Assembly: GCA_046293175.1 (NCBI GenBank)
Contig: JBKBPM010000001.1
Coordinates: forward strand, 363,446-427,445
DNA: 64,000 nt
Reading direction: 5' to 3'
Source of the DNA: Minisyncoccia bacterium
GTDB lineage: Bacteria > Patescibacteriota > Minisyncoccia > Phycocordibacterales > UBA918
The notes under the pieces were generated by a model. It was given only the letters and a program-made list of their open reading frames with translations. It was not told where the DNA came from and searched no databases. The translations under genes were made by a program, and so were the position numbers. How positions within the stretch are numbered: position 1 is the stretch's first letter; every line of letters begins with the position of its first letter. Below are positions 21,285 to 63,008 of this stretch, one piece after another.

Positions 21285-22391
21285 CTAACCGGTCCAGTTG
21301 AAAAGAAGAATAGAAAAGTCCTCCAACCCTACCCGCCCATTACTATTAATGTCAGCTGGTGGATTTGAGTCGCCACCGGCAGTCTGCCACCAGAAAATGA
21401 GAATAGAAAAGTCAGTGAGATTTACTTTACCATCGCGACTGAGGTCAGATGGGGAACTTGGTGCCCCATCAACTCCCAACAGAAGCTGTACAACGCTACT
21501 ATAGCCACTTTGTGTAAGCAACGGTGGTGTACCAGTAATCGAGCGTACTTTGATTGGATAGGTAGCATTTCGCATCGAAGCAGTGTTCAGGGTAAAGGTA
21601 TAGCGACCACTCGCATCACTCGTCGTACGCTCAGTACGGAGACTACTATTTCCCACTTGGATTTCAATTGTAGCACTCGGGACCGCTTGGCCAAAAATGG
21701 TGATCGTGCTACCTGGACTCACTTTAGTATTCGAGAGAATGAGAGTTGGTGGCAACAAAAGGCCACTCACGTTTGTTACCGCTCCTTGGGTCACATCAAA
21801 GGTACTATTGAGCGTGATTGATCTGACACCATTAGCATCGTTTGCCCACACTCCAAGTGTCGCTGTTCCAGGAGACGCTTTAGTAGAAAATTCAAACCGT
21901 CCTGAGCTATTGGCTCGTACCGAGCCAACCGACTTGGTATCAAGTAAAAAGTTTACTTGTTGGTTAGGGTAAGCGATACCAGTCACGCTGATTGACGCAT
22001 CACCCAAATCACGTGTACCTCCTCCTCCCCCACCACCACCTGAGGATCCACCACCACCTGAACCAGCCGGTTCAATTTGGCAGGTAGCCGAACAAAAGTC
22101 ACCGCCGGTATTGTTGGCGTCGTCACATTCTTCTGCATAAGTGGTCTGCAAAATACCATCGCCACAGTACGGTCCATAGTCACAAACGGCATTACACTGA
22201 CGACCGGCTATAGTGGTACTGTATAGCCCAATTTCACCAGGCACATCACACTGCTCACCAACATCCACTAGTGCATTACCACAGATACTGAGATCGATAG
22301 TAGTAGTCGCAGTTGAAATCGTCACCGCATGAGCATCGCCAGGAAAAGTTCCAAGTGAAGCAATTATGAGAAGGAAGGCTATCCACTGCAT
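21285..22391 (-). CDS. secreted dockerin-domain protein with N-terminal Cys-rich (myxococcal-type CxxxGEECD) repeats and Ig-like/CarD-like beta domains
   Basis: 368 aa with a signal peptide (MQWIAFLLIIASLGTFPGDAHA). Cys-rich repeats (CGNALVDVGEQCDVPG, CGDGILQTTYAEECDDANN, CSATCQ) are followed by a Gly linker and beta-sandwich domains. The C-terminus is a duplicated dockerin (DLSRDGKVNLTDFSILIFWW...DINSNGRVGLEDFSILLFNW). Confidence 0.75.
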   Translation of the reverse strand: MQWIAFLLIIASLGTFPGDAHAVTISTATTTIDLSICGNALVDVGEQCDVPGEIGLYSTTIAGRQCNAVCDYGPYCGDGILQTTYAEECDDANNTGGDFCSATCQIEPAGSGGGGSSGGGGGGGGTRDLGDASISVTGIAYPNQQVNFLLDTKSVGSVRANSSGRFEFSTKASPGTATLGVWANDANGVRSITLNSTFDVTQGAVTNVSGLLLPPTLILSNTKVSPGSTITIFGQAVPSATIEIQVGNSSLRTERTTSDASGRYTFTLNTASMRNATYPIKVRSITGTPPLLTQSGYSSVVQLLLGVDGAPSSPSDLSRDGKVNLTDFSILIFWWQTAGGDSNPPADINSNGRVGLEDFSILLFNWTG

Positions 22392-23439: not shown

Positions 23440-25317
23440 TTACCAAGCAGATGGTGTTGAGATAGCACCAGTGAATGTGTTCTGACCGGTATACGATCCT
23501 GCGAGTGTAATCGTACCTGGTACTGCAATACCCCAGTAGGTTGTTCCAGAAGTTGGAGTTGAGGTACTCGTTGGCTTTGGAATCTGAATTTGGAGCAAAG
23601 CCGGCGAGGTAGTGGCAGGAAGGGGTGATCCCGATGCGTAGGCAACTGCCGAGGTTGCATAGCGCTGCTGGTTTTGCGGGATAGTTGAGGTTGCAGAGAC
23701 GGGACAAAGACTACTGTTACTAAATGTTGTACACATAGACTCTCCACCGAGCAGCTGGTTGAGGCCAGTGTTACCAAGTACTCGCAGTGACGATGATGAA
23801 GTCAAGTTCGGCATGTTGGTACCTGGTTCGAGCTGATCGTACGCAATGGTACTCGTGAGAAGGTCAATCGCCACCAGACTAAGTAGCTCTACTGGGCTAG
23901 TGGTGGTAGCCATGGTACCCGTAGCAAAGTCATCGTCGACGCCTGCCACACCAGCACTCCAGGCTTGGGTATCAAATGGTGTACCAGAAACTGTTGGGTC
24001 GGCAATAAACCAAAGTGGGAAACTACATGAGTAGTTAATCGTGTCATCAGTAGCACCTGTACACGAAGTAGATGAAGCGGTACATGAGAGGTTCCAGACC
24101 GACGACGAGACACCACTTGGGTAACAGTTGTTGGGGTTGTAGCTACCGGCGGTACCGTTACAGGTAGTGGTACCGATAGAGCTGCGGAAGATAGATACAA
24201 CCGAGCCAATAATTTCATCAGCAGAACCGCCACCAACTGCATCACAACTATTGGCATCTGCAACCACAAAGTCAAGGGTAAAACCTGATGTTTGCGCCCC
24301 TGGAACGGTCAGTGCCATATCAAGACCACCATTAAGAGAGATGGTACTTCCTGAAATAGTTGGAGCAACGTTATTGACTGCAAAGGTGACATTTGTTCCT
24401 TGTGCTCCACCTACTGCCTCATGGCCATGTTCGTCATAAAGGTACCCAAAAGCATTATAGTTCGTGTCTTGGAGAATACTTGCCATTACCCGACTAGTTG
24501 TCGCATTAGCATAAGCGAGTGATATTGATGAAGACGCAACGGTGTCACCAGAGGCACAACTGTTTGTGGTAGTACTATAGGATGCACTGCCGCACACAAC
24601 AAGATAGAGAACATCTTCTGTGTCAACAACGTCTGGGTCAGTTGATGTGGATCGAAATAGCAGTGTACCGCCTGGGTCTACCGGTCCATCATTACTGAAG
24701 CCAGAAAATATTGGTCGACGGTTAACGTTAAATGGAGAAGAGTTAGTAGCGTTTGTTCCTTGTGAAAAAGTTGTACTACAACGTGGATTTACAGGATCAT
24801 CATCACATACCCAAGCATACCACTCGTTTGACTCAGAAAATAGACCTACTTCGTCAGTGGTGGTCGCGGCGCGAGCCTCTGTACCACTTGGAGTTCCTGT
24901 AGAGACAGCCCATCGGGTACCGGCACTACAAACTGGAGGTCGGGTACCAAGCGTTGAGGTTGATTGTTGTGCTGTTGGAGTCGCACTGGTACTACAAATA
25001 ATGAGGAAGTACGGTGCACCGTTAGCGTCTGTTGCTGTACCTACCCATGCTATCTGATCACCAGAGTTCGTCGGCGAAGTTGATGAGGAGCTTATCAACT
25101 CACGTGCTTCTTGACCGGCCACCCACGTTGGTGGGGTGTTTAGTACCGTTAGAGTGGTCGTCGCGGTGCTGGTCGCTTCAGCCTTTTCTAGTTCAGTTTT
25201 ACCAATGTTAAGAATAAATATAAAGGTAAAAATGAGCAGTCCTGATAACGCTGATAATACAGTGATCTTTCCTGCGGTCTCTACATACCGCGGAAGGTTA
25301 TTTTTGTTGTACAACAT
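23440..25317 (-). CDS. surface protein (625 aa) with Cys-rich C-terminal domain ending YWGIAVP, homologous to the C-termini of both giant proteins
   Basis: Signal anchor (ITVLSALSGLLIFTFIFIL). The C-terminal roughly 250 aa (SSIGTTTCNGTAGSYNPNNCYPSG...IPQNQQRYATS...TYWGIAVPGTITLAGSYTG...) align block-by-block with residues about 7200-7450 of the 7450-aa protein. Confidence 0.7.
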   Translation of the reverse strand: MLYNKNNLPRYVETAGKITVLSALSGLLIFTFIFILNIGKTELEKAEATSTATTTLTVLNTPPTWVAGQEARELISSSSTSPTNSGDQIAWVGTATDANGAPYFLIICSTSATPTAQQSTSTLGTRPPVCSAGTRWAVSTGTPSGTEARAATTTDEVGLFSESNEWYAWVCDDDPVNPRCSTTFSQGTNATNSSPFNVNRRPIFSGFSNDGPVDPGGTLLFRSTSTDPDVVDTEDVLYLVVCGSASYSTTTNSCASGDTVASSSISLAYANATTSRVMASILQDTNYNAFGYLYDEHGHEAVGGAQGTNVTFAVNNVAPTISGSTISLNGGLDMALTVPGAQTSGFTLDFVVADANSCDAVGGGSADEIIGSVVSIFRSSIGTTTCNGTAGSYNPNNCYPSGVSSSVWNLSCTASSTSCTGATDDTINYSCSFPLWFIADPTVSGTPFDTQAWSAGVAGVDDDFATGTMATTTSPVELLSLVAIDLLTSTIAYDQLEPGTNMPNLTSSSSLRVLGNTGLNQLLGGESMCTTFSNSSLCPVSATSTIPQNQQRYATSAVAYASGSPLPATTSPALLQIQIPKPTSTSTPTSGTTYWGIAVPGTITLAGSYTGQNTFTGAISTPSAW

Positions 25318-25395
25318 ACTAAATACTCTTATATTCTATAGGATACAAAGCAAAGTTATGCACTAGTTATGCACACCAGACAACCTTTACGACTT

Positions 25396-25576
25396 CTGGT
25401 GAGTTGTATGCTCACGCAATAATTTTCTAAAAGTACGAGGCGAGACCTCGTACTTACAAACGATTTTCTACTAAAGAGTTGCGAGCAGTAGCTGAGAGAC
25501 GTGGATTGGGCCATTAGGAATAGGCCCAACTCACGGAAATTCGCCATTGTCGGGCTAAAGCCCTCTGTGGCTTATT
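25396..25576. repeat. hairpin-rich intergenic repeat element, copy I
   Basis: ggtgag...ctgagagacgtgga-ttgggcc-attaggaata-ggcccaa-ctcacggaaattcgccattg...ctctgtggct. Contains the hairpin gtacgagg-cgaga-cctcgtac (25433..25453) and the covarying hairpin at 25506..25529. Lies between the stop of the ABC permease and the start of 23440..25317. Confidence 0.7.
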
Positions 25577-26785
25577 TCATTCATATCTGATGGCATCAAG
25601 TGGGTTGAGTGATGAAGCGCGGCGAGCTGGAAAAATACCAGTTAGGTATCCCACAGCTGCCGAAAAAAGCGCAATAAATACCAAAAAGCCAATTGGGAAT
25701 GAGAAGAGTTTTACAGCTTGACCACCAAATTGACCAGCAACAATATTAAGAAATAGATTAATAGTGACACCCAAGCCCACCCCCATCACAATTCCACTAA
25801 TACCACCAAGGAAGCCTACCACCACTGATTCAGATACGAAGAGGTATTTTACATCATTAGGTGATGCACCAATGGTGCGCATAATACCAATCTCCTTGGT
25901 ACGCTCAAGGAGTGTCACCGTCATGGTATTAAACATACCAATCGCGGACACAACCAAAGCAATACCACCAAAAGTGGCAAGGACAATCTGAATGCCTTGA
26001 AAGATCTTTGACGCTTGCTCTACAGTTTTTGAGAGCGCTGTTACACGGTACCCGGCCTCAATGAGCTTATTCTCTACTACCGGGAGGTTTTCATTCGTAT
26101 CAACACGCACCTGAATACGTTCAAACTCTTCAATGCCTACATAATTACGGAGTTCTGGTAACATCATCATGGCATTAAGGACACCCTCCTCTTTGGTGAT
26201 ACCACGGACGGTAAACTCTTTATTAATTACCACTTCGGTATTATTGTTCGTACCATCGTTTGCGGGAATCAAAATACGAAATGACACCTTCTCCCCCACA
26301 AAACTCGCTGGGTCTTCGACCCCGAAGAGCTTGAGGACTGCTGGTGAAATCATCACTGAGTTGGTGTCACCGGCATCAGCATCTGTGAATACTGTTCCTT
26401 CGGTAGCAGATACACCAGCATAGCGCAGATACGGTGGCTCCACGCCTTGAATAAAGACGTTACCGGTCAGTCCTTTGTAGGTCACGAGGGCGGGAAAGCG
26501 AGCCAAAGGTGCCGCATCAAGTACTTCAGGCATTTTTTCAAACTCAGCTACGGTGTCGGCGGTCAATTTAAGATTTTGAGCACCGGTGGCTGACACACCA
26601 AGAGACAACAGCGTCTCACCAAACACAATTTGTTCCAAGATGATTTGTTGGAGACCAAAGCCAAGACCCACGAGGATTACCACCGCTCCAGTCCCCACCC
26701 CCATACCCAAAATCGTCAACCAGGTACGGAGAGGGTTCGTTTTGAACATACGCGTAGAAAGCTGCGCTAGATCCTGCACTCGCAT
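25577..26785 (-). CDS. ABC transporter permease, FtsX/MacB-type (periplasmic-domain-containing)
   Basis: ORF 25577..26869 (-). ATG verified at 26785 (MRVQDLAQLSTRMFKTNPLRTWLTILGMGVG). N-terminal TM, large extracytoplasmic domain, then a C-terminal FtsX-like four-helix bundle (IGIMRTIGASPNDVKYLFVSESVVVGFLGGISG...). Confidence 0.85.
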   Translation of the reverse strand: MRVQDLAQLSTRMFKTNPLRTWLTILGMGVGTGAVVILVGLGFGLQQIILEQIVFGETLLSLGVSATGAQNLKLTADTVAEFEKMPEVLDAAPLARFPALVTYKGLTGNVFIQGVEPPYLRYAGVSATEGTVFTDADAGDTNSVMISPAVLKLFGVEDPASFVGEKVSFRILIPANDGTNNNTEVVINKEFTVRGITKEEGVLNAMMMLPELRNYVGIEEFERIQVRVDTNENLPVVENKLIEAGYRVTALSKTVEQASKIFQGIQIVLATFGGIALVVSAIGMFNTMTVTLLERTKEIGIMRTIGASPNDVKYLFVSESVVVGFLGGISGIVMGVGLGVTINLFLNIVAGQFGGQAVKLFSFPIGFLVFIALFSAAVGYLTGIFPARRASSLNPLDAIRYE

Positions 26786-26885
26786 AGTACATCCATTATG
26801 ACACAACTCGTTACATGCATTGGGCAGATAACCCCACCTATTAAAGGTAAACTTTGTACTAGAGCACACTAGTTGATTTAAGATT

Positions 26886-27195
26886 CAAGGTGAGAAATGG
26901 GATGGGGTAAAGAATGATGGGTATCATTCTTTACGAGGTTGCCAGCTATTTTGATTAAAAATAGCGACAACCTGTACTGGTCATGTAATGACCCATTTCG
27001 TAAGACGTTGCCAGCTACTTTATGAGAGAAACGAAATAAAGTAGTGACAAGGTGTGCTACTCCTCTAAGGAGGTGAGAAATTTTGAATTGTTTTAAAATG
27101 CTACCTAAAGTAAGGTTGTGGTAACTGAGAGACGTGGACAAAGCCATTAGTAATAGGCTTTGCTCACGGAAATTCTCACTAGTCAGCTTACACCT
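26886..27195. repeat. hairpin-rich intergenic repeat element, copy II (between ABC ATPase and permease genes)
   Basis: ggtgagaaatgg..., two sub-copies of the gccagcta hairpin (gctattttgattaaaaatagc; gctactttatgagagaaacgaaataaagtagt), then ctgagagacgtgga-caaagcc-attagtaata-ggctttg-ctcacggaaattc (hairpin 27139..27162 with compensatory changes relative to copies I and III). Confidence 0.7.
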
Positions 27196-27207
27196 CGTTT
27201 GTTTATT

Positions 27208-28530
27208 TCAGCTTTTGTACGAGACATCAACCCCCTGCGCAATCAGCTTCTCAAAATAGCGCGTCATATCATCAGCCTCACTTTCTGAGAGAGCTAGACC
27301 TTTACTTTTCACACCCTCCATAAGACGAGCGTTGAAGTCTTTCTCTTCTATCACTCCCGTCACACGATCGGCTACCAATTCAACTAGATTTGCATCTTGG
27401 TCTTTACTGAGTTTCATGCGATAGACTTCCAGGAGGTGGTCACGAAGACGTTCAGCTAATTTGTGTTGACTGAAAAATACGCCAGCGTTGTCCTTTTTGG
27501 CGCGGAAACGACGAATGTCATCTGATTGTTCAATTAGCTTTTCACTGCGTTTGGCCATATCCTTGGCCACGTTTTCAGGAATCTCTACTCCACCACGTTC
27601 AAGTGGTAAAACAAGAGCTTTGATAAATGCATCACGGTCAATTTTACCTTTGATAAAAAAGGCTACAGCCCGCTCAAGACGCTGAAGTTGATCAAACGTA
27701 TAGTCCTGAGTCAGGTAGTTTACGAGACTTTTTACACGGAGAGTTTCCACCGAGTCATACGGGAAGAGACGGGCCAGCTGTTCGAGTTCAGTTACAATCG
27801 TCTCACCTTCTCGTACTGGTTTGATTTGTTTTCGCTGTGGGTTAACCACCTCACGAACAATTAAGCCATCTTTGAGATAGTACACCCGATGGGCGTAGGA
27901 GAGGTGGGCCGCGTTGTGGGATACCATAATAATTGTTCGACGATCAAATGTGTTAATTTCGTCAATCTTGTCCATCACTTGCTGTGTTGAAATTGAGTCG
28001 AGGTTACCAGTTGGTTCATCAGCAAGGAGAATTTTTGGGTCATTCACCATACTTCTGGCGACCGATACACGCTGCTGCTGACCCCCCGAAAGCATCGAAG
28101 GGATCTTATGAGAAACGTGACCCACTCCAAAGCGTTCAAGGAGCGATTGGGCACGTCGATTACGCGTCTGCTTGTCTGCATTACAGAAAATCATTGGCAA
28201 GGCGACGTTGTCGAGCACCGAAAGAGAACCAATCAAGTTGAAGGACTGGAAGATAATACCCATCACATAACGTTGAAAGTACACACGTTCCGAGGGTGGA
28301 TAGGAGTAGATATCGTCACCGCGAATGAGGAGTGTCCCATCACCGGGCGGGAGTGAACCTTGAATCGAATACATCAAGGTCGACTTACCAGAACCAGAAG
28401 CACCGAAGAGAATAATGTACTCGCCTTCATAGATATCCGTGTTCACGTTCTGGAGCGCACGAAATTCATTGGACTTGCCCTTATTATAAATAATCGACAA
28501 GTCACGGCACACAATGAGTGGTTTCGCCAT
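27208..28530 (-). CDS. ABC transporter ATP-binding protein (MacB/LolD-like) with an unusual ~215-aa C-terminal extension
   Basis: Walker A GASGSGKST, Q-loop, signature LSGGQQQRVSVAR, Walker B ILLADEPTGNLD and H-loop VSHN lie in residues about 1-225. Residues about 226-440 (IKPVREGETIVTELEQLARLF...LIAQGVDVSYKS) are helical, charged, and have no recognisable family. Confidence 0.9.
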   Translation of the reverse strand: MAKPLIVCRDLSIIYNKGKSNEFRALQNVNTDIYEGEYIILFGASGSGKSTLMYSIQGSLPPGDGTLLIRGDDIYSYPPSERVYFQRYVMGIIFQSFNLIGSLSVLDNVALPMIFCNADKQTRNRRAQSLLERFGVGHVSHKIPSMLSGGQQQRVSVARSMVNDPKILLADEPTGNLDSISTQQVMDKIDEINTFDRRTIIMVSHNAAHLSYAHRVYYLKDGLIVREVVNPQRKQIKPVREGETIVTELEQLARLFPYDSVETLRVKSLVNYLTQDYTFDQLQRLERAVAFFIKGKIDRDAFIKALVLPLERGGVEIPENVAKDMAKRSEKLIEQSDDIRRFRAKKDNAGVFFSQHKLAERLRDHLLEVYRMKLSKDQDANLVELVADRVTGVIEEKDFNARLMEGVKSKGLALSESEADDMTRYFEKLIAQGVDVSYKS

Positions 28531-28559
28531 ACGTTTCTCTATTATGACATATCAGTACA

Positions 28560-28870
28560 AATGCAGTCGTCTCCCCTATCCCCATTAGTCTCCTCTTTAG
28601 GTTCTGAGAAATAAATGTAGTATGCAAGCGAAAGTAAGGTTTCAAAAATCAGTGTAATTCGAGGTGAGAAATGGAAAGGGACCATTTCGCAAGGCTCATT
28701 TAGAATCTTTTGAGTGATAACAAATAAAGAGCCAAATGAGTGGACAGCCTCTGTAAGAGGGGCGAGGAAATTATTGCTGCAAGATTTGAGAGACATGGAC
28801 AAAGGCATTAGGAATAGCCTTTGCTCACGGAAACTCGCCATAGTCGGCTACGGCCTCGTTGGCTCATTCC
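28560..28870. repeat. hairpin-rich intergenic repeat element, copy III (upstream of ABC ATPase gene)
   Basis: ggtgagaaatgg-aaaggga-ccatttc (28668..28688), cctct-gta-agagg (28748..28760), ctgagagacatgga-caaaggc-attaggaata-gcctttg-ctcacggaaactcgccat (hairpin 28800..28823), ...ggctcatt. Confidence 0.7.
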
Positions 28871-30345
28871 TAATTAGTTATATTCTTAACCCAACCAAAA
28901 GTTGATTCGAAGTTCTCGAGAATCAAATCAATAATGTTCTTTTCTTGAATTGGGGTGAAGAGCACGAAGTTTTCAGATTGGATTGTGTTGTTCGCTTCAT
29001 CAGTACAATTAAGCCAGAATTGGTACACGGTGGCTGGCGCAAAGTCGGTAATAACTTCAACATGATTGGTGTTGTACTCAAGCACTTCCTTTTCGAGCAC
29101 AATCGGGTCAACACCACCAGCCACCCCTTCACGATACGTCATGATACACGAAGCTGGTTCGTCGGTATTCCATTCCACAATGGTCTGAATTCGCGACTCA
29201 CCACCAGGGAAAATGGTTGATTCGTTAGTAACATTTGAAATGAGAGGTGCTGAAATATCACGTACGGTAATGAACTGAATTGGCTGACTCCGCACCCGAT
29301 CACCACCAGAGTTTTCTGCAATCACAAAAGCAACATAACGGGTACCAAGAGTAAGATCTGAGAGTCGCATCTGGTGTGTGGTTGCAAGAGTTGGTCGCCC
29401 TACCGAACTTTGTGTTCCCTGTGTCAAATCCTGGTATTCAATGAGCGCTTTGGCGGGCACCGTGGTGTCCCATGCCAACGTAGCGGCATTTTCTTCCACT
29501 TTAACAATTCTGAGGTTACGGATCTCTGGCAAGGCGGCTTTCGTACGAAAGGTGTACGTCCGACTTTCACCGGTAATCTGGTACGAGTCAGTGGAGCGAA
29601 CTTGAAAACTGTATTCTGTGTACGGTTCAAGACCAATAAGTCGAATTTCGTGATCAGTCACAGCACCAGCAGTAGATGACTGTGAAAAATCAAAGTTTGT
29701 ACCATCAAAACCATTTGTTTTTGAGAACCGCACTTCAGAACTCGCTTCGCGGTCGGTTACCCATGAGACTGTAGCTGAAGTTGTCTCAGGTACTACCGTT
29801 GGTGGACCTACAATGGTGAGGTCTTCGGTAATACCGGCAATCGCTTTAATAGTTTCGTTCAAAATCTCCTGCAGTTGTTGAGGGTTTTGAATTTCCTGTA
29901 TTTGCTCAACAATTTCTTGCGGAGTATTGGTTTGACCGGGACCAATACCAGTTCCGGTACCACTATCTGAAGTTGTCTCACTTTCTACTTCAATTTTGTA
30001 GTCAGCAGAGATACCCTGATTACCCTCAGCATCAGCTGAAATCACTCGGAAATAGTACGTTCGTCCCGGTTCTAAACTTTCAAGCGTCACCGAATGACTG
30101 GTACGATTAGCAACTGGCACACGCACCACACCCAGATCTGGGTTCAAGCTATAATTTACTGCTGAATCAGCATTTTCACTGGTCTTCCAAGTAATTGTCA
30201 CTGAGGTGTCAGTTGAAGAAGCTACTTTTACTTCGGTAATTTCTGGCGCTTTGGTGTCGTTAGTCTGAGCAATCACCAGTACAGTCGGCCATACTAAAAG
30301 CGCCATTACGAGGAACAATGCCAAAATATTCCGAGACATAATCAT
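28870..30345 (-). CDS. secreted protein with four FN3-like (purple-acid-phosphatase-N-like) domains
   Basis: 491 aa with a signal peptide (ILALFLVMALLVWPTVLVIAQT). Four ~100-aa repeats each end in Y.F.V-type motifs (RTYYFRVISADAEGN, TEYSFQVRSTDSYQ, TRYVAFVIAENSGGD, TVYQFWLNCTDEANN). No C-terminal anchor. Confidence 0.7.
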   Translation of the reverse strand: MIMSRNILALFLVMALLVWPTVLVIAQTNDTKAPEITEVKVASSTDTSVTITWKTSENADSAVNYSLNPDLGVVRVPVANRTSHSVTLESLEPGRTYYFRVISADAEGNQGISADYKIEVESETTSDSGTGTGIGPGQTNTPQEIVEQIQEIQNPQQLQEILNETIKAIAGITEDLTIVGPPTVVPETTSATVSWVTDREASSEVRFSKTNGFDGTNFDFSQSSTAGAVTDHEIRLIGLEPYTEYSFQVRSTDSYQITGESRTYTFRTKAALPEIRNLRIVKVEENAATLAWDTTVPAKALIEYQDLTQGTQSSVGRPTLATTHQMRLSDLTLGTRYVAFVIAENSGGDRVRSQPIQFITVRDISAPLISNVTNESTIFPGGESRIQTIVEWNTDEPASCIMTYREGVAGGVDPIVLEKEVLEYNTNHVEVITDFAPATVYQFWLNCTDEANNTIQSENFVLFTPIQEKNIIDLILENFESTFGWVKNITN

Positions 30346-36300: not shown

Positions 36301-39300
36301 GTTAGATTAATAGCGGTTGCACCAACATCATACACGTGAGCTGCACTGACCGTCAGTCGGCCACTAACCGTAGTCGTAGCAGCTGAGGCTGGAGTTGTGG
36401 TACCGGCCATCGAACCATTACCGAGCACGAGATTTGCAAAGGTCCATGGTGTAGTGCCGCCGAGAGTATTAGTACGAGCAATGGTGGTAGTCCCAGCTCC
36501 AAGTGACAACGTACCGTTACCGGTGAGCTGACCATTGAGGAGTGAGATGTTGTTGGTGCCCGTCACCGTACCAGCAGTAATAGTCATGTCACCAGTAAGA
36601 CTCAGTGGTGCGGTGATGTTCCAGGCTCCGCCAACGCCAGTAAACGATAGGTTGTGGAAGTTTTGGGTAGCAGCGGCCGTAATACTCTTACCGGTAGTTG
36701 TTGCCGTAAAGACAAACGTCGAAGAGGCAGCGGTGATAGTGGCATTGGTACCAACAACGAGTCGTCCTGAGAGACTATGGGTATCAGTGCCAGCGGCGAC
36801 GAACTGTGAAGAAGTGGCGAGGGTGAGGCTGCCTTCAAAGGCACTACTTGACGCGTTACCGGCAAGCGTCACAGGGCCACCAGGGGTAAAGGTGGTACTC
36901 GCCCACACAAAGAGACCGTTGTTTGCAAATACAGTGAGCGAGGTCGACGGTGTAGTGGTCGCAGTAAAGCGCAAGTCAGTATCAGACGCGGTGTTAAAGA
37001 GGGTCAAATCAGCAATTGAAAGCGGCACAGCTCCTTCATGGCGAGTAATGAGCTGGTAAGCATACACATCAAAGTTGGTGATATCAGTAGTTGGTGTCTT
37101 CGTGACAGCTGCACCTGTAACACCACCATTGGTGTTGAGGTAGACGGTAATCTTCGGGTCACCAATAAAGGCGACGTTACTGAAACTGTATGCACCAGTT
37201 GCCGCATTACATGATGTTTGTGCAGTATAACTGCCGCTGTTCACAACCACCCGAACATTTGGTGTTACTCCATCACAAACTGGTGCACCCAGTGCGGCTG
37301 AACCATCGCTGCGTAATACCCGACCAGAAACAGTAATCAAGTATGAACTATCGTCAAAGCGAATGGCACCGGGGTTGGTATCCCCTCCATCAAACGCTTC
37401 ACCGTAAAGATTGCCAGTTCCCTCCTTAAACCAAACGAAGCTGGTTGATGTACCGGTAAAGGTGACGTTACTGCCTGTACCAGCTGTGGTCGTCGCAAAG
37501 GCAACCCGCAAGAACTGCTTGGCTGGGTTGGTGTTCACGGTGGTGCCATCAATGCGAAGACCTGAGGTGCCAGGCGTCACCTCGACATACCCATCATCAA
37601 ATTGTGACAAGGTCGTTGAACCTAGGAGTCCAAAGCCAGCGGGACCGGTACTAGCAACACTGAAGTTACGAGCGGTGACAATTGAGTTGGTGGCATTAAG
37701 TGAGAATGAGCCAGTGAGTGCAGCGACGGTGGTGGTAGCTGAAGTGGTACCGGTAAGGTTAAGCGAAGCTGCGGTGAAGCCAATACTTGAACCACTTGCC
37801 ACCCGCACGTCAACCTGCCGAGGACTACCAAGTACCGTACCATCAAAGTCAGTGGCGTACGCCCAATGTTCAGTGCCGGTACTGCGAATGTAATTACCAT
37901 AGATATTGAGGTCACCATCAACTCCAGCATGATCTTGTGAGTAAATTGAACCAGTACCATTGGTGGTATACGTTGCAGCTGATGAATTCCACATCGCCAC
38001 ATCGGTGTCGCCGTCAACGAAGAGTGTGCCGTAGACATCTCCCGAGAAAGTCTTTGCGTGCATACTATGATCCCCACCAATGAGACGGAGGATTGAACCA
38101 GTCCAAGTCGTTGAGGTGCCGGACATGGTTTGCGAGAATGTACCTGAAGCAGTCAGCGAGATACCACTGTTTAGGGTGAACTGGGTGGCGGTTATAAGAT
38201 TAATGGCCACGGTTGATGTTGCCGCTTCAGTGATCGTGAAGTCTCCCCCCGCACTATTAAATTCAAGTGTCGCAAAGTTTGAATTACCAGCAGCAATAGT
38301 TTCTGCTCCAGCGATTGAATTAAAGCGAACAGTACCGCTGGCATTGAAGAAGGTAGCGTTGTTATCAAATGATCCTCCTACACTCAAGACTCCTGTTGGG
38401 AAGGTTGTATCTCCTCCAGTATCAAGCACAAAGTTACCTAAGATAGTGGCATTGGTATCTGTAAAGGTACGAGCAAATCGTGCTTGACTACTACTTGTTG
38501 CGTAGAACGTACTCGCACTGATCTGATTGTTATATTCAGTGGTCAACCAGCCGTTTGTACGAGCCACATTAGACAGACGAATTTCATCAATGATGCCCGA
38601 GAAGAAGCGACCACCAGCATCATCTTGCCCAAACTTGAGATCGTTGATGGTTGAAGAGGCATGGGTAGTACTATTACTACTACTAGCTGAACCAGAAGTA
38701 GCAAAACGATAGATAGTAGCGGTGGTTGGATTGACCACCAGGGCAGCCATAAACCACTGATTTTGAAGATAGGTTGGTGCCCCATTCCAGCCATAGGTGG
38801 CAACCGTATCGTTCCAGTGGTACCCAAGGTTTCCAGCCGTACCGTTAATACCAAGACCGGTGGTTACCGCACCACGAGAGAAAACCACACCATCGTATGC
38901 ACTCTGTGCTCCGTTTGGACGCATCCACACCGACCAGGTAGATGTCGCCATCGAAGCCGCAAAAGTAGTCTGAATAAACTCGTTCGTACCATCAATACTT
39001 TGACCTCGACCCACCTGTGCAGTCACTCGGTCACCCACCTCCATATTATTACTCGTACCGGTGGTACTACCCGTACTACCAACATACTGTGGGGCAGAGG
39101 CAGTTGGGCTTTCATCCAAGTGATAAACCGCGAGATATCCATTGGTCCAAACATTATTGCGACCAAATGGATCTGTTACAGCATAAGCACTAGCAGCACT
39201 GTTGCCGTAGTAAATATAGAAAGTGGTGTTCGTAACATTACTAATAGTTGGCGCTTTGAAGTGTAACTCGCCACTTAGTGAACCAGTGTTTATGCTCACA

Positions 39301-42300
39301 AGTTCATATGGTACTTCGGTTACACCATCACTCGTGGTGACGCGAATATCACTACCGTCACTTTTCACTCCTGCAAAGAAGGCACTACCAAGCGTAGCCA
39401 AATCAACATAGACTGGGAAATCCGTCACTGTTTCCGCGACCTGACTGGCACTAATAGTGATGGCCATGCGACTCGTCCAACTGTTGTTATACCAAGAACC
39501 AACCCCGCTACGAGTACGTAGATGGTTGAAACTTGAACCATTGGTGCTGATTTGATTGGCATCCTGCACCAACAAAATGACTTCACCATTGTTGTGGGCA
39601 AAGGCCCCAGAACCAGTTACAGCAAAGTCACCGCCTACAGTTAACGTGCCGCTTGGCATAGTGACGGTACCGCTTTGAATACGATGTGCACGTGTGGTAG
39701 TGGCGGCACTTTCAGAGTAAGTCCACGAGCCTGCACCAGCAAAGGTAAGATCGTAGAAGGCATTAAGGAAATTCGTAGCCCTTTGGGTAATTGTGCGTCC
39801 AGCTACACTACTGGTCATACGAACCTCACCATTGTTATGTGCAAACTGTCCGCCCGTATTGAGGAAAGATCCCGCAATCGTCGTAGTACCAGTTGGCAGC
39901 GTGACCGTACCGGTTGCGATGGTGAGTGTACCATTAAGGACTAGTGTACTTGTGCTAAATGACCAGTTACCACCAGCACCGGTAAATGACAGGTTGTTAA
40001 AGGCAGAGGTACCACGTGCAATCACACCGGTACTGGTACCAACAAAGGTCACCGTACCACTTTGCGGAACAAAGAGGTTGTTGTTTGTCCAGGCCCGGAC
40101 GACATTTATGTTAAAGCCAGAACCAGAGGCATTAAGCGTATCGTCTGCTCCAATAGTTATCGACTCGCTGCCGACATTACCAGAGAGCGTGATGGTTTTG
40201 GCTGTACCATCAATGACAACATTACCGACATTAGTACTTGAAGCGGCACTTTTTGCATCACCCCAAAGACTACTGCCAGCACCATCAAAGGTGGTTGTAC
40301 CAAGCCCACTAAAAGTACCATTGGCGCCAAGACTTAAGTTACCGCCGATGTTTATACTCGATGTACCACGAGCCAAGGTTCCAAAGTTCATCGTCACATT
40401 ACCAGAAGCAATCAGTGGTTTTGTGAGACTAAACGTAGCATTACCACTACCTTCACCAAAGGTAACATTATGGAAGAAGAGTGAACTTGAGGCATTAACT
40501 GGCGTTTGGGTCGAAGTAGTAGCCGTAAAGATAATGGTTGAAAGACCAGTCGTAAATGTACCTTGGTTATTCCAGAGATTACTAATACGGAAGGTACTGG
40601 TGGCTGGGGCAAAGGTACCATTATTTTGGAAATTAATGACACTCGTGTCAGCCCCTGGTGCGTAGGTTGAACCAGAAAGTACTCGCAGACGAGCATCACC
40701 ACAAGTTGATTCAGCACAGAGAGTGATAGCGTTACCACCATCAGCACTAAAGAAGATGTCTTCGTTGGCACTATTGGCATAGAGCGCAAGCTGAGCATTG
40801 GTGATTGTGGTGTTGTCGTTTGAACCAATCGTCAAGTGACGCTTACTGAGCACCATACCCGTAATATCGCCCGAACCATCATAGACGGTGGTGCCCACTG
40901 CTTCGTCGGTACCACTTGCATTTTGCATAAACACCGTGATGACATCACCAGCCACAGCTGACACATTTGGAATCGACCAAGAACCAGCCGCTGAGACTGT
41001 TGACCAGGTAATAACCACCCGTCCAGGATTACCATTGCCTCCATTGGTTGAAGTCGCACTGGTACCACCACTACCAGCTCCACCACCATAATCACTGTCG
41101 GTGTTATTACCAGGTAGACCAGGAGAGGTGGAAGAACCACTGACCGTTGATGTAGCAGTTACACCACTGGTTGTAATATACGATGAACCACCGCCGCCGC
41201 CGGCACTCGCTTGGTAGATACCTGCCCCACTAGCACCGCCGCCGCCGCCGTAATAACCGGCGCCACCACCAGCACCACCAGCAGCCAGGGTTGATGAGGC
41301 ACCGGCACCACCAGCCCCACCACCATGTATGCCACCAGCACCACCGGCGCCACCACCAGCACCAGAACTACCACTACCGCCGTTATAGGCCGAACCCACG
41401 GTTGCATTCCCGCCACCAATGGCACCACCCGTTGACTGTGTACCACCAGTTCCAGCTGTACTGCCAGTCACACTGACTCCATCACCACCAACGAGACCAC
41501 CTCCAACCCCACCAGCACCCGCCAGTGTTCCGGTGACGCTATGCGGTTTGAGCGCAAAGGTAAAGTAGCGACCAACATCAGCACCAACTGATGCTTGTGT
41601 CATGGTAGGTGCACCAAGCTGTCCAGGTGCCCCAACTGGATTATTATCGTAACAAAGGAAAACAGAGTTGTCGGTACCGTTAGCGTTAGCTGAATAAAAG
41701 TTTGCATCAGCATTCGTTGGGATGTCACAAGAACCTCCGCCAGGACCCCAGGTGTTGTTATCCATCGAGCCACCAACATGAACTACCATGGCATCTGCCA
41801 CCGTGGCATTGAGATCAGTTCCCGTAAAGACAGTATTGGCTACCGTGACGGCAGTGTTTGTACCAACCACATCATACGGATTACCAGTAGTAGTCACGCC
41901 ACGATAGGCCCAAATACGACCGGTGTATGACTCAGTGGCTGGTCCACCAAAAGTTGGATTACCAGGCACAGCACCAGTGCGGCGATAGTACCAGACAGAC
42001 AAACGACCTTCACCAGCCGATCCTGCTTGAGAAGAAAATTCTGTCCAACCGGTGCAGTTAGCGGTACATGTATGTGCGGTGTTTGTTCGTGAATGTAATA
42101 CGGCAATATAAACGTCATCAACTGCTGTACCAGCCGGAATGGTTGGAGTACAACTAGCACCGCTAACCGCACAAGCTGTACCAACCCCAACATAGCTTAT
42201 GCCACCAGCCACTGACCCACCACCGCCACCAGCACCAGCCACAAAGAGTGGTGTTGAGGCACGCATCACGGAGGTAGCGCCACCTCCCCCACCACCACCC

Positions 42301-45300: not shown

Positions 45301-48300
45301 AAATTAGCATTTGATTCCCGAATAAGGGTTGGTGAAGAAAAGTCAGCATCGTCATCAATCACCACTTCGTATGATACGAGGTCGCCCAGTTCATCTGTAG
45401 CGGCAAATTCAAAAGTTGGTGACGTTGAAGCCATCTGTTCGTTGTCAAATGGTGCAATCAGTGTCGGTTCAAGTGGTGCCGCGTTGGTAATCAACCGTGG
45501 GTAGTTGTCATAGCTATTCAACACAGAACCATCAGCATACACGACACGGAAACAGTAACTCGTATTAGCAGCTGCATTGTTGTTTTGAAGTACAAAGTCC
45601 CATTCAGCATTTTGACCTACCAATAATGCATTACGATTGAGATTGGTAGGGTTGTACTCTTCATACGTCTCAGGGAACGTACTACTAGCCAGCAAAGTGC
45701 TTGGTAGCACTCGACCATCACTGATGATTTCTTCAGAGGCAACGGCATAAAAGCCCGTAGGGTTTGATTTGTTATTAAAGGTGGTTTGTATCCAGCCGTC
45801 ACTACGAACGATATTTGAAATAGATACTTCATCAATACCACCGGTAAAAAGTCGTCCACCTAATGGATCTTGTCCAATATCAAGAGCTGCATAGGTACCC
45901 GTCGAGTGGGTTACCGCATTAGTTCCACTTGCTACCCCCACCCCGGAGTGACGCCACATTACCGCTCGAGTCGGCTCAATGGTCAAGGTGGCCATAAATG
46001 GCGCACTAGAAGTTGGATAGGTCGGCCCCCCTGTCCAGTTGTACGTAGCAGCAGCATCACGCCAGTGGTAGCCGAGACGATTTGTATTCGATGGAATATT
46101 GATACCACTGGTTTCACCTGACGCGCGAGTCATTAAAAGACCATCAAAGGCGCCTTGGTTACCGGTTGAAGAAGCCCAGATTTGCCAGGTTGAGTTGAGG
46201 AAAGAACGATTAAAGCTTGAACCAAGATCGATATACTCATTGGTTCCATCAATTGCTTGGAAGCGACCAACAATACCGTTCTGACGATCGCCCACTTCCA
46301 TATTTTGTGATGTACCATTACTATTGCCGGTACTATCAATAAATTGTGGTGCTGTGGCAGTTGGACTTTGATCAAGGTGGTACACCGCCAAGAAGTTGTT
46401 ACTCCATACATTATTGCGACCATAGGTAGCTGAGACACTATAGCCACTGGCTGCACCATTGCCGTAGTACACATAAAAGTCAGTGTCGGTTGTTGTCGAA
46501 AGCGATGGGGCTCGGAAGTGGAGCTCACCAATATCACTACCCGTATCAAGCGAGACTAGTTCATATGGTACTTCAGTTACTCCGTCACTGGTGGTGATGC
46601 GGATATCGTCACCGTCACTTTGCACATTATCAAAGAATTGCGCAGGAAAATCATCGAGATTGAGGTAAACCGGGAAGTTTGTTACATCATTACCTGAAAC
46701 TAAAGAACTCTCAACTGTCACCTTAACCCGCCGTGGCCAAGAGGCACTGTACCAATCAGTACCAACGATTGAGTTCGCATATCCGCGCCAGGTTGCCGTT
46801 GTACTTCCAACCGCACCCACGTCTTGCCAACCGGTAGCAATATTACAGGAGACACCAGTTGCGTACTGTAACTTGAAGGCGGACGTACTCGTCGGCAACG
46901 TCACATTTGCCCCCTCAAGTGAGAGACGAAGACGGATCACATCGTTGAGACTGACCGCTTCTGCTGAAGTGAGTGCAGTATTTTCTGCCACATCGGTACC
47001 TCCTACCGGCCAGGCATCCGTCGGGGTAAAGACACTCGCGTTTGTATACCAGCGAAAATCATTTTGTACGAGTTTTGGCTTACGCACCCAAGCCACTGAC
47101 CAATCATCAAGACTCGCACTGGTGGCGCCAAACGTGGTCAAGGTGGCCTCAAGACAAATCTGACTGTATGTGGTGGTAGAAAGACCAGTCAAGTTAAGAG
47201 GCATAGCCGTACTGTCAAAACCTGCACTATTTCCTGCCAGTGCTCCGTCTGGTATATAGGTGTCACAAGTGGTCGTACTCGTGTATTTAAGCTTTACCGT
47301 TACGTCCGTTCCAAACGGCTCAGTTGAAGAGAACGTAAAATCACCCCAGGTTTGCTGGTTTGGCACCGCCGAAAAGACAATCGGCTGCGTCGTCACAGTA
47401 CTTTGAGTAAATTGGTAGCGCTTAGCAGCCATTTCAAACGTTTCAAATGGAGCACCGGCTATTGAAGATGGGTTTGGTACTATTGATTGTTTCGTTGACC
47501 AGCTGGTTCCGTTCCAGTACGTTGACTCTATTTCATCCCCCGCCACAGCATCATCGTGTGAGACTGAGACGATGGTGCCATCTCCAGCTCGTTCTGTCTG
47601 CACCCAAAATACACCAGTACCCGCTCCGACACCTGTAATGGGCTGAGGGGCTGACCATGATGATGTCGCATACACGCTATACCGTGCATTAGTTGTGTCC
47701 GAATAGGCGGCGAGCGTATACCCCGAGCGACCTGCTACCGTCTCATATTCACAATCAATTGGTCGCCCAGCCTGAGAGTTACCAGCCGTAGAAAAATCAT
47801 TATAGGTGCCGGTCCAGATACTACCATCCCACCGGATCGCTCCTGGACGAGCCGAATCATTGATGTAACACAACACCATGTTGTCTGAGTTTGGATCAGC
47901 CGAGAGTGTTCCCCATTCAAAGTCATTTTGCAGTGCCTGGGTGGCAGGAGCGGTCCAATCAAGACCCGTCCAAGTACGATAGATGAAACTATTTCCCGTA
48001 CCATTGGTGACTGCTACAATCGCTTGATCACCGGAAGTTTCATACTTCACCCCAATACCAGCTCTCGCTTCTTGACCAGCCTGTACCGAACCCATGACCC
48101 GACTATTACCAAAAGCCGAACCGTCCCACACGAGCATCTCGTAGTTGTTACCAACCGCCGCTCCACTATCGCGTACTACCAAAATCATTTCATCTGAGGT
48201 TGGATCAGACGCAATCTCAACATGGTTACAGACGTTGACGAGGCTGGTAGTAATACTACTTGTAGCTGACCAGGTAGAACCATTCCAAATACGATAGACC

Positions 48301-61307: not shown

Positions 61308-62567
61308 TCAGGCCTTGACGATTTGGAGTGCTTGCCACTCTGTCGTATAGGCTGGTGAACGTAAGGCAATTTTTGTTTGCCAGGTAGGTGTCTTCGTGAA
61401 TTGGCCAAGCTTGATGGTATCGCGACCGTAGCGCTGGTTAAGCGTATCAACCATTTCATCAACCACATCGGCCTTCCCTGTCTGCACATCAGTAGCGGCA
61501 AACAAGCTCTGCGGAACAAAGGCGGTGGGCATTAATCCAAAAGCCACTACGCCAGTTTTGGTGTACGGTACACCTGGTCGATACAGTTGTTTGAGGGCCT
61601 TAAGCGCCTCATTAAGCACAATAGTTGTGGTTGCTGTGGGAATCTCAAATACCACTCCAGTACTACCACCATAACCACGCCAATCACCATGGCGTGAGGT
61701 ATAGAGAATGACCTGTAGACCGCTTGCCACCAGATCTTGTTCACGCAATTCTTCACACACAAAGCGCACATGGTACGCGAGCGCATCTTTTATAACCGCA
61801 AGATTATTCGTCTTTTCACCAAAAGAACGTGTAGACATTTGAGACTTGGGAATTGAGTGGGATTCCGTTACCAGGTACACTGCCTGCCCCGCCAATTCAG
61901 CTTGCAGCTGTACACCATTTTTATGAAAAAGCTTCGCTATCCGTGGAGTTGGGGCAGCCAGTAGGTCGTTGATTGAATGGATCTTGGCTTCCTTGTAGGC
62001 AACAACCAGCTGTCGACCCACCCCCCAGATATCTTCAAGTGGCGTTCCCCCAAACTCAGTGATGAAATCTTCTCCCGCAAAGACCCCAATACCACCATTG
62101 CGCTTAGCATAGGCATTTACCCGTTTGGCCCGCGTTTTTGTGTCAGAGACACCGATGGAAACCGGAATACCAACGAGTCGCTCCACTTGTTCTTTAAGCG
62201 TCAGAGCGTACTGACGAGCCTCAGCTGCCGTCGTGGCCGGTACAAGGAAAAAAGCTTCGTCAATAGAATACTGTTCTATCTGGCCACAGTATGACTTGAC
62301 CACCGAGAACACCCGCCTGGAGATATCGCGATAGAGCGCAAAGTGTGAAGAAAAGCAGACGGCACCTATGTCTTTTAGTATGTCCTTTACTTCAAAATAA
62401 GGGACACCCATCGGGATACCATTGTCCTTTATTTCCTGTGACCTAGCGACAATACAACCGTCATTACTCGAGAGGACTGCTACCGGCCGGTGCCGTAAGT
62501 CAGGGCGAAACAGCCGCTCACAGGAAACGAAGAAGTTGTTACAATCAAGGACCGCAAGGTATGCCAT
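61308..62567 (-). CDS. Y-family DNA polymerase (UmuC/DinB-type translesion polymerase)
   Basis: ORF 61308..62633 (-). ATG verified at 62567, with GGAG 7 nt upstream (MAYLAVLDCNNFFVSCERLFRPDLRHRPVAVLSSNDGCIVARSQEIK...YSIDEAFFLV). These N-terminal motifs are diagnostic of the UmuC/DinB (IMS) family. No umuD-like gene is adjacent. Confidence 0.85.
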   Translation of the reverse strand: MAYLAVLDCNNFFVSCERLFRPDLRHRPVAVLSSNDGCIVARSQEIKDNGIPMGVPYFEVKDILKDIGAVCFSSHFALYRDISRRVFSVVKSYCGQIEQYSIDEAFFLVPATTAAEARQYALTLKEQVERLVGIPVSIGVSDTKTRAKRVNAYAKRNGGIGVFAGEDFITEFGGTPLEDIWGVGRQLVVAYKEAKIHSINDLLAAPTPRIAKLFHKNGVQLQAELAGQAVYLVTESHSIPKSQMSTRSFGEKTNNLAVIKDALAYHVRFVCEELREQDLVASGLQVILYTSRHGDWRGYGGSTGVVFEIPTATTTIVLNEALKALKQLYRPGVPYTKTGVVAFGLMPTAFVPQSLFAATDVQTGKADVVDEMVDTLNQRYGRDTIKLGQFTKTPTWQTKIALRSPAYTTEWQALQIVKA

Positions 62568-62654
62568 AGATACTCCTAGTATACCAAAACCCACTGGCCA
62601 GTGGGTTTTGGTATACATTTTGTTTTTGGTCACCTGTGAGGACGGTCAATAATG

Positions 62655-62962
62655 CTGCAGGTTCGAGGTGAGAAATAATTCATAAGACCTTGCCAGCTAC
62701 TTTATGAGTGAAGTGAAATAAAGTAGCGACAAGGTGTACTGCTCCGGTACGGAGGCGAGGAGAAACAAAGTGATACGGCGCGGATAAAGCCATTAGGTGA
62801 GAAAACGTGGGACGTTTTCGCAAGACTCATTGAGTAATTTTATGAGTGATAACGAAATAAAATAACCAATGAGTAGACAGTTTCTGTAAGAAATAGGCTT
62901 TACTCGCGACAATTCGCCATTGTCCCACTTCGTACTCTGTGGCTCATTCTACGTTGAACTTT
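62655..62962. repeat. hairpin-rich intergenic repeat element, copy IV (two tandem units; left stem of the 3' hairpin deleted)
   Basis: Unit A 62655..62795 (ggtgagaaat...gccagctactttatgagtgaagtgaaataaagtagc...ctccg-gta-cggag...aagccattag). Unit B 62796..62962 (ggtgagaaaacg-tggga-cgttttc, tttct-gta-agaaa, aataggctttactcgcgacaattcgccattgtcc...ctctgtggctcatt). Lies between the Y-family polymerase and GH18-like genes. Confidence 0.7.
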
Positions 62963-63008
62963 TTTGTGACGCAGGCAATAAAGAAGATGCGGTATTAGTG
63001 GCTGTACT

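Follow-up and report, generated by a model that had tools for sequence, protein, structure and literature searches.

What are the hairpin-rich sequences that lie between genes at four places in a Patescibacteria chromosome, on which strand do they fold, and why do so many of their relatives begin at a stop codon? The DNA considered here, which we call the window, is a stretch of 64,000 nucleotides (nt) from a Minisyncoccia bacterium (contig JBKBPM010000001.1 of assembly GCA_046293175.1, positions 363,446 to 427,445 of the forward strand). A first-pass annotation had described four copies of one structured intergenic repeat and had leaned weakly toward the plus strand as the RNA sense, which would be antisense to the genes. 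The analysis presented here gives a different picture, in which the core element is a unit of two adjacent hairpins, here called T, that folds on the gene-sense strand and usually starts at the stop codon of the gene before it. On balance we favor, by a modest degree, the view that T and its companion modules are a lineage-specific family of invasive, modular, hairpin-forming repeats of the 3' untranslated region (3'UTR), similar in kind to REP, BIME and BOX, in one Saccharibacteria-like clade of the Patescibacteria.

It is clear that the four loci share sequence. Comparison of the spacers with the window by blastn, and a repeat search, confirmed that the four loci are intergenic, have the same orientation, and have blocks in common at the positions first given for them (Table). 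There are three types of shared block, and the motif GGTGAGAAA occurs six times in the window, on the plus strand only, where 0.44 occurrences are expected by chance. All the open reading frames (ORFs) of the window of at least 200 aa are on the minus strand. What did not survive is the idea of four copies of one element: the loci are mosaics that differ in module content, and the family is far larger than four. We assembled 48 related loci (designated L001 and so on) from Patescibacteria/Saccharibacteria metagenome-assembled genomes (MAGs) and metagenomes. When species-representative genomes were scanned for the pattern, two MAGs proved to have the core block; in one of them, labelled Candidatus Saccharibacteria, it is on three contigs. 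A scan of metagenomes gave 34 loci, about 30 of them genuine; L002, L016, L023 and L028, found by pattern scans, were set aside as chance matches. The close relatives of the window's ABC ATPase are labelled Parcubacteria or Patescibacteria; the host therefore belongs to a Patescibacteria (Candidate Phyla Radiation) lineage, with a precise label that varies by source. Scans of IMG/VR gave no convincing viral copy (two matches: one contig was judged a chance match and the other was not examined). The family is also new to Rfam, as had been supposed. There was no match at the gathering score over the whole window and none at E<=10 over 25300-28900, and in 62540-63020 only chance matches of microRNA type were seen, all on an unrelated hairpin at 62579-62616.

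What does the T unit look like? The structure was obtained with RNAalifold from an alignment (A1) of 26 simple first units in gene orientation. T is about 95-125 nt long, with hairpin H1 followed directly by hairpin H2. H1 reads 5'-GAAAU-GA-GCCA, a 5-nt loop, a GC-rich 4-bp hairpin, a second 5-nt loop, then UGGC-GA-AUUUC, and the facing GA dinucleotides could form tandem sheared G·A pairs. H2 reads CGUG-AG, a 7-bp stem (P3) capped by the conserved 11-nt loop CUAUUCCUAAU, then UC-CACG, and is followed by the tail UCUCUCAAnUACC. Unpaired nucleotides of T are conserved across A1 as well. Two further structural proposals were set aside. An alternative long-range helix between CUCACCUGAAG and UUUCCGUGAG, which might have been a switch or a terminal inverted repeat, lacked covariation across loci, and a K-turn or 11-nt tetraloop-receptor motif in H1 was an unfit match to the loop geometry, as judged by inspection only.

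The pairing in T is preserved by compensatory change. In A1, which is not fitted to a model, 97.8% of the cells at paired columns are standard pairs, against 86.7% in shuffled alignments, and 70 cells show double changes, against 19.8 in shuffles. When the partner column was slid by one to three positions, only 27-43% of the cells were paired. Covariation is present in every helix of T; the GCCA/UGGC helix, for example, varies as C-G, A-U and U-A. P3 takes at least 14 different, perfectly complementary forms among 45 distinct T units, though the independent events are fewer than the cell counts suggest, because several P3 forms recur at different loci. The covariance model built from A1 (R1) detects a diverged T in L048, with a score of 48.7 bits, that has compensatory changes in every helix (AAAGU/ACUUU, UUAA/UUAA and AGCAGCC/GGCUGCU). 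The four hairpins named in the first-pass annotation are thus real, and their pairing persists when relatives are added, as does that of the second module described below.

Is it structure or a peptide that is being kept? The excess of double changes over shuffles, and the lack of conservation of the small ORFs through the copies, bear out the earlier proposal of selection on pairing rather than coding. Recent duplication of a coding leader with a conserved peptide had been put forward as the contrary case, and what is found is that both frame and sequence change: the minus-strand ORFs beginning MANFRE and the plus-strand mini-ORFs, with a Shine-Dalgarno sequence and ATG or GTG, shift in frame and sequence along with the compensatory changes. 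T units also occur in head-to-tail arrays, of four units in L027 and also in L035, L013 and L040, with a period of 82-84 nt, which is not a multiple of three and so also counts against coding. Degenerate T copies and arrays are seen in copy II of the window and in L040.

On which strand does T fold? The consensus fold has an energy of -28.7 kcal/mol on the gene-sense strand, which in the window is the minus strand, versus -20.2 kcal/mol on the plus strand. Variable G-U pairs outnumber A-C mismatches on the gene strand by 11:2 in A1, and by 33:12 in the 45 unique units. Were T to fold on the plus strand, its H1 would have U·C where the gene strand has the tandem G·A, and six of the 26 sequences would have C·A as the second pair of this hairpin. 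These observations favor the gene-sense strand for T, so the proposed antisense orientation fails for this unit, as it also does by the stop-codon anchoring and terminator position described next. The R1 hits in the window are confined to the four known loci and all lie on the minus strand; the other spacers of the window have no further copies by R1 or by its counterpart for module B (R2). For module B the strand is ambiguous. It is found in both orientations relative to genes; single B sequences fold slightly better on the plus strand in seven of ten cases, with two near-ties.

The most distinctive feature of T is its position. Of 32 first units, 25 come with a long ORF in the same orientation, of 200-770 aa or truncated by a contig end, whose stop codon lies at -3, -4 or +2 relative to AAUGAGCC, and therefore nucleotides 2 and 3 of the stop codon form the first pairs of H1. 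Two further first units have an ORF stop at -5 and -11 relative to AAUGAGCC. In L035c, where the stop is UAA, the pairing partner has changed from C to U (AUUUU), so that the pairing is compensated. Stop codons anchored to T are TGA in 21 cases and another codon in five; for the other genes of the window the corresponding numbers are three and 26 (Fisher's exact p ~1e-7, or 3e-6 after orthologous sets are collapsed). For the 32 main genes of the window, usage is 15 TAA, 12 TAG and five TGA, and two of the five TGA codons are overlapped by an element. The host genes are unrelated. Pfam confirms among their products DnaN, DnaA, RecG, ribosomal protein L2, a UvrD-like helicase, YidC, glutamate dehydrogenase, a class I aldolase (FBA), SMC, FtsX and an ABC ATPase, and a further host gene encodes an amino-acid kinase.

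What follows T also speaks to its place in the transcript. Canonical terminators, with a hairpin and a U tract, lie after T and 150-260 nt past the stop codon in L001, L006/L030, L010, L015, L026 and L038. The convergent FBA/rpmG locus has a shared bidirectional terminator, and T is placed between it and a stop codon. Because T lies between stop codon and terminator, we infer that it is part of the 3'UTR of the upstream gene. At the same locus T is on the FBA side in L046, L038 and L045 and on the rpmG side, on the other strand, in L048; from this switch it follows, we infer, that the orientation of T is set by the adjacent gene and not by a fixed DNA or replication strand.

Several familiar roles for such a structure were considered and rejected. 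T is not itself an intrinsic terminator, as there is no U tract after H1 or after H2 and separate terminators are found downstream. A riboswitch or other cis-regulatory leader would not be expected to follow unrelated genes and to precede no common functional class, as T does. A signal for readthrough, or one like the selenocysteine insertion sequence, is not indicated either, as there is no conserved in-frame extension past the stop, and UAG or UAA is used at some loci.

T has companions. Module B is about 100 nt long and has three hairpins (hp1 to hp3), in the plus-strand order GGTGAGAAA, hp1, TTCGCAAG, hp2, TRGACAG and hp3 (NNNCT-GTA-AGNNN). The window has two variants of it, A and B, which can be aligned over their full length. 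R2 finds 24 copies, and in the alignment of these copies, which is fitted to the model, 97.3% of cells are paired, against 74.5% in shuffles, so pairing in B also shows covariation. B lies beside T in copy III, is found inside the H2 loop, as ATTAG|GTGAG...GTAAG|RAATAG, in copy IV, L004, L006, L007, L014 and L035, and stands alone, in opposite orientation relative to genes, in L003 and L013. The 84-nt insert in the hp1 loop of copy II consists of paralogous hp2 and hp3, and the orthologue in L022 reads GATGGG|ACCC, with no insert. At insertion junctions the 3' arm of hp3 is partly made of host nucleotides. An unrelated hairpin family, module C, occupies the same spacers in relatives (L022 4635-4700, and spacers III/II of L042 and L040); it has an A/T-rich stem, TTCA, CCGTAC..GTACGG, CTCAC and a closing A/T-rich stem. 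Lastly, insert D, which contains GACTATGAAAAT and GCCCTTGTGGT, splits T between GAAUUU and CCGYGAG, in L045 (2566-2620), L004 (2338-2395), site I of L040 and site III of L043. It seems that, in this clade, hairpin modules in general land at positions just past stop codons.

Are these elements stable residents? Comparison of orthologous loci says that they are not. The window has spacers III/II/I of 340/418/260 nt. The corresponding lengths are 200/~26/673 nt in L040, 63/26/61 nt in L041, 227/274/58 nt in L042, 533/207/74 nt in L043 and 51/145/103 nt in L044, where the ATPase has, respectively, 96, 93, 89, 85 and 83% aa identity to that of the window. Neither T nor B turned up in L041, L042 or L044 when these were scanned with R1 and R2. 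Orthologous sites are empty in L041, at all three sites, and in L047, and are filled in the window, L022, L040, L014, L046, L038 and L045; the filled spacers of the window, L022, L014 and L040 carry differing modules. Empty alleles have a TAA or TAG stop followed almost immediately by the -10-like motif of the next gene, and in filled alleles the composite starts at the same codon, as TGA or as TAG plus G. In six filled sites there is a TAA at the far (right) junction, with TGA or TAG at the left one. Tentatively, this TAA may represent either the former stop codon or a short duplication; the spacing does not quite agree with that of the empty sites. The junction at site I is TAG-GGAAUGAG in L040 and UGA-AAUAAG in the window and L022, which is compatible with independent arrivals at one stop codon.

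When present, T is well preserved. Between the window and L022, orthologous T units share 86.5% identity overall and 95% over the first 62 nt, with two compensated pair differences in P3; identity at four-fold degenerate sites of the adjacent FtsX gene is only 44%. The identity of T is thus far above that of the four-fold sites, and therefore T is kept by selection or by gene conversion between copies, and is not in neutral decay.

How are these observations best explained? In the reading that we favor, T would be transcribed as the start of the upstream gene's 3'UTR and would fold there into its two adjacent hairpins. H1 starts at nucleotide 2 of the stop codon, so that the element in effect brings its own UGA, and H2 provides the covarying 7-bp stem and the invariant 11-nt loop. 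Modules B, C and D are added beside T, within its loop or nested in one another, presumably by duplication, recombination or insertion. Copies would spread to new stop codons, build tandem arrays and be lost again, and the sequence of the copies would be kept by selection or by gene conversion between them. If REP/BIME, ERIC and Correia elements are a guide, so stable a structure where the ORF ends may protect or process the upstream mRNA and interact with the terminating ribosome. Several points weigh against this reading. Transcription of T and its folding as RNA are deduced indirectly. In the ORF listings, and in the Pfam assignments of selected flanking genes, there was no transposase, recombinase or RNA-binding partner, and no clean target-site duplication or terminal inverted repeats were found at the elements. 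That module B occurs in either orientation with respect to genes is easier to reconcile with a module acting at the DNA level than with a sense-strand RNA; the high sequence conservation could reflect recognition by a DNA enzyme instead of an RNA function; and, as the clade is narrow and some of the loci are orthologous, sequence counts overstate the number of independent events.

Could the RNA be irrelevant, with the hairpins acting in single-stranded DNA as recognition structures of a REP/RAYT-like, IS200/IS605-like (PATE) or other structure-specific recombination system? Such a system would explain conservation of sequence for recognition by an enzyme, unpaired nucleotides included, the presence and absence of copies among orthologues, the tandem arrays and nested insertions, and the occurrence of B in both gene orientations; completion of the 3' arm of hp3 by host nucleotides resembles target recognition by base pairing, and DNA hairpins also tolerate G-T wobbles. 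We nevertheless think it unlikely. The orientation of T switches with the adjacent gene (L046 versus L048) and keeps to no single replication strand, and exact anchoring at stop codons is not something that a single-stranded DNA transposon accounts for. The REP signature, a 5' GTAG and a 35-40 bp palindrome, is absent, and no transposase gene was seen beside the copies examined, by ORF listings and Pfam of selected flanking genes only. If anchoring is the telling fact, might T rather be a dedicated, non-mobile, cis-acting device of the 3'UTR, whose stop-codon helix senses or modulates termination, ribosome recycling or 3'-to-5' decay, with each copy kept by selection at its own gene? REP sequences of E. 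coli within about 15 nt of a stop codon reportedly cause ribosome stalling and tmRNA action. The UGA enrichment, the compensated change at stop-codon nucleotide 2 in L035c, conservation far above synonymous sites and the place between stop codon and terminator would all suit such a device. Against it, L041, at 93% aa identity, is empty at all three sites, and others have unrelated hairpin modules there. Because relatives lack T or carry unrelated modules at these sites, the element is dispensable for these genes; moreover, the host genes have no common function, and degenerate copies and arrays exist. We regard a non-mobile device as quite improbable.

The proposal of independent, structured small RNAs from the plus strand, antisense to the genes, draws something from module B, the plus strand of which opens with a Shine-Dalgarno-like AGGTGAG and folds slightly better in most of the single sequences compared; one G-T pair in copy II also fits the plus strand, and the tip of T followed by CTCATTTCA is weakly terminator-like there. 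We consider the proposal as a whole highly improbable: for T the plus-strand consensus fold is weaker by 8.5 kcal/mol, with the C-A mismatches and U·C tandems in H1 already mentioned, a promoter scan gave no consistent promoter upstream, and a separate small-RNA gene gives no reason for the element to end, as it does in 25 of the 32 cases, at the stop codon of a gene on the opposite strand. A bolder extension of the view that we favor is that T is a novel type of element, with its spread or its function linked to translation termination, which we hold to be doubtful, though worth stating in its two versions. In one, T may be a mobile 3'UTR cassette that lands exactly on stop codons, supplies its own UGA as first pairs and leaves the old stop at the far junction; in the other, it may be a domesticated RNA device, and the terminating ribosome would have to open its first helix, tying the state of the 3'UTR to translation. 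Targeting is pointed to because of the possible independent arrivals at one stop codon, at site I and in the side switch at FBA/rpmG.

The layout of the four window loci, together with other features of the window, is given in the Table. The genes flanking the loci encode, by Pfam, a MacB/FtsX permease, an ABC ATPase, an FN3 protein, a Y-family polymerase and a GH18 hydrolase.

Table. Shared blocks, modules and other features of the window (window coordinates).
Feature	Position	Strand	Description
~82-nt shared block	25493-25576, 27126-27207, 28787-28868; in part 62889-62949		74-80% identity
81-nt shared block	26997-27077 vs 62679-62759		85% identity
99-nt shared block	28662-28758 vs 62795-62891		79% identity
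Copy I, degenerate hairpin	25398..25419		GGTGAG...CTCACGCAA; end motif of module-B type
Copy I, terminator-like hairpin	25427..25460	- (gene strand)	GUACGAGG-ucucg-CCUCGUAC, then UUUUAG; downstream of T
Copy I, T-unit H2	25500..25535	-	CGUG/CACG; 7-bp P3 UUGGGCC/GGCCCAA; conserved loop CUAUUCCUAAU
Copy I, T-unit H1	25536..25579	-	GAAAU/AUUUC, tandem G·A, GCCA/UGGC, tip GGGC-UUUA-GCCC; first two pairs from TGA stop of FtsX-like gene (25577-25579)
Copy II, B-type module	26889..27072		hp1, hp2, hp3; 84-nt nested insert 26907-26990 in hp1 loop
Copy II, 42-nt mini-module	27073..27114		GTGAGAAATTTT...AAAGTAAG
Copy II, T-unit H2	27133..27168	-	P3 CAAAGCC/GGCUUUG
Copy II, T-unit H1, degenerate	27169..27210	-	overlaps TGA stop of ABC ATPase gene (27208-27210)
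Copy III, module B beside T	28663..28760		hp1 GAAATGG/CCATTTC, hp2 CTCATTT/AAATGAG, hp3 CCTCT/AGAGG
Copy III, T-unit H2	28794..28829	-	CAUG/CACG: G-U on gene strand, A-C on plus strand
Copy III, T-unit H1	28830..28872	-	overlaps TAG stop of FN3 protein gene (28870-28872)
Copy IV, second B-type module	62667..62754		gctactttat/ataaagtagc hairpin of the first-pass annotation
Copy IV, T-unit H2	62779..62908	-	CGCG/CGCG, UAAAGCC/GGCUUUA; module B (62797-62890) inside loop
Copy IV, variant T-unit H1	62909..62950	-	~60 nt downstream of GH18 stop; not anchored to it
Extended -10-like motif	26795-26803, 28541-28549	-	TGTCATAAT; 9-12 nt upstream of FtsX and ABC ATPase starts
Direct repeat TGCATAA-N4-TGCATAA	25356-25374	-	GTGCATAACTAGTGCATAA; upstream of 625-aa surface protein gene
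Perfect 17-bp hairpin	62579-62616		GTATACCAAAACCCACTGG/CCAGTGGGTTTTGGTATAC; directly upstream of AGGAG ribosome-binding site of Y-family polymerase gene
Giant ORF, 7450 aa	30372-52724		long internal repeats, e.g. 39028-39380 vs 46285-46637
119-nt direct repeat	21331-21449, 55098-55216		75% identity; inside minus-strand ORFs 21285-22391 and 55052-56968

The terminator-like hairpin of copy I is weaker than the canonical terminators of relatives, and its score is under the threshold of a simple terminator scan. The -10-like motif TGTCATAAT is kept in all orthologues (L040-L044), even with a spacer of only 26 nt, and therefore each gene is suggested to have its own promoter and an almost leaderless mRNA. 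The TGCATAA direct repeat is conserved in orthologues (site I of L041-L043) with or without an element, and may be an operator. The perfect hairpin before the polymerase gene scores as a terminator on the plus strand and is unrelated to the repeat family. The orthologues of the giant ORF have DUF2341 and Laminin_G_3 matches. The 119-nt direct repeat suggests that the two ORFs in which it lies may be paralogous genes. Among the relatives, L010 (823-1683 and downstream) has the ribosomal protein order L4-L23-L2, then T, a strong terminator and an unrelated gene in place of rpsS, so that the S10 operon is interrupted after rplB.

How does the family compare with known repeats? REP/BIME units of Enterobacteria and Pseudomonas are also short, extragenic hairpins in transcribed regions at the 3' ends of genes, form mosaics with other motifs and tandem clusters, are present in many copies per genome, and may be present or absent between relatives. 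REPs stabilize upstream mRNA, and near a stop codon they affect translation. T differs in having no sequence similarity and no GTAG head, in consisting of two hairpins with a conserved 11-nt loop rather than a 35-40 bp palindrome, in forming direct and not alternately inverted arrays, in the precise overlap of its first helix with the stop, and in its host, a Patescibacteria lineage with a reduced genome; no RAYT was seen among the flanking genes in the loci of about 4-14 kb around the copies examined. BOX (boxA-boxB(n)-boxC) of Streptococcus pneumoniae and ERIC/IRU are likewise intergenic repeats of modular build that fold strongly, vary in the number of their internal modules and are transcribed with neighboring genes, and ERIC has extra segments inserted at fixed internal sites. 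Their sequences are unrelated, however, and here modules are nested in hairpin loops and the core is stop-anchored and gene-oriented.

The first-pass annotation had also raised the possibility of an element like a miniature inverted-repeat transposable element (MITE). Part of that idea stands: orthologous sites are either empty or filled, and MITEs such as Correia/NEMIS and RUP are likewise non-autonomous, multi-copy, differently inserted in close relatives and able to supply gene-end signals. In the present case, however, the inverted repeats are internal hairpins rather than terminal ones, there is no TA or other clean duplication, arrays are tandem and head-to-tail, and structure is kept by compensatory changes. 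Because no clean target-site duplications or terminal inverted repeats were found, the element is not a classical MITE. The attC sites of integrons offer another likeness, as an imperfect hairpin right after, and often overlapping, the stop of the preceding ORF, with a two-box helix, unpaired spacer and variable tip, and with strand-specific folding. They differ in that T has no RYYYAAC/GTTRRRY core sites and instead has the conserved helices GAAAU/AUUUC and GCCA/UGGC, and in that the host genes are syntenic housekeeping genes rather than cassettes, with no integrase nearby. An IS200/IS605-derived PATE would have subterminal hairpins at both ends on one strand, insertion 3' of a fixed tetra- or pentanucleotide, and a TnpA partner. 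Here the hairpins are strand-specific and host nucleotides complete hp3 at insertion sites, and neither a fixed target sequence nor a TnpA came to light. We found no description of such repeats in the literature on Saccharibacteria and Patescibacteria. Overlap with the stop codon, a UGA supplied by the element and modules nested in loops set this family apart from those known.

What does the family mean for these bacteria? The genomes of Patescibacteria, or the Candidate Phyla Radiation, are about 1 Mb and tightly packed, so that an expanding family of structured spacers of 100-400 nt is unexpected, and a conserved helix that both overlaps and supplies the stop codon is unusual among bacterial repeat families. 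The covariance models could be used to annotate the elements in MAGs and would help to avoid spurious calls of small ORFs and small RNAs, and the elements could serve as markers of strain-level variation. Finally, the elements offer a way to study the interplay of 3'UTR structure, termination and mRNA decay in organisms whose genes appear to have very short leaders.

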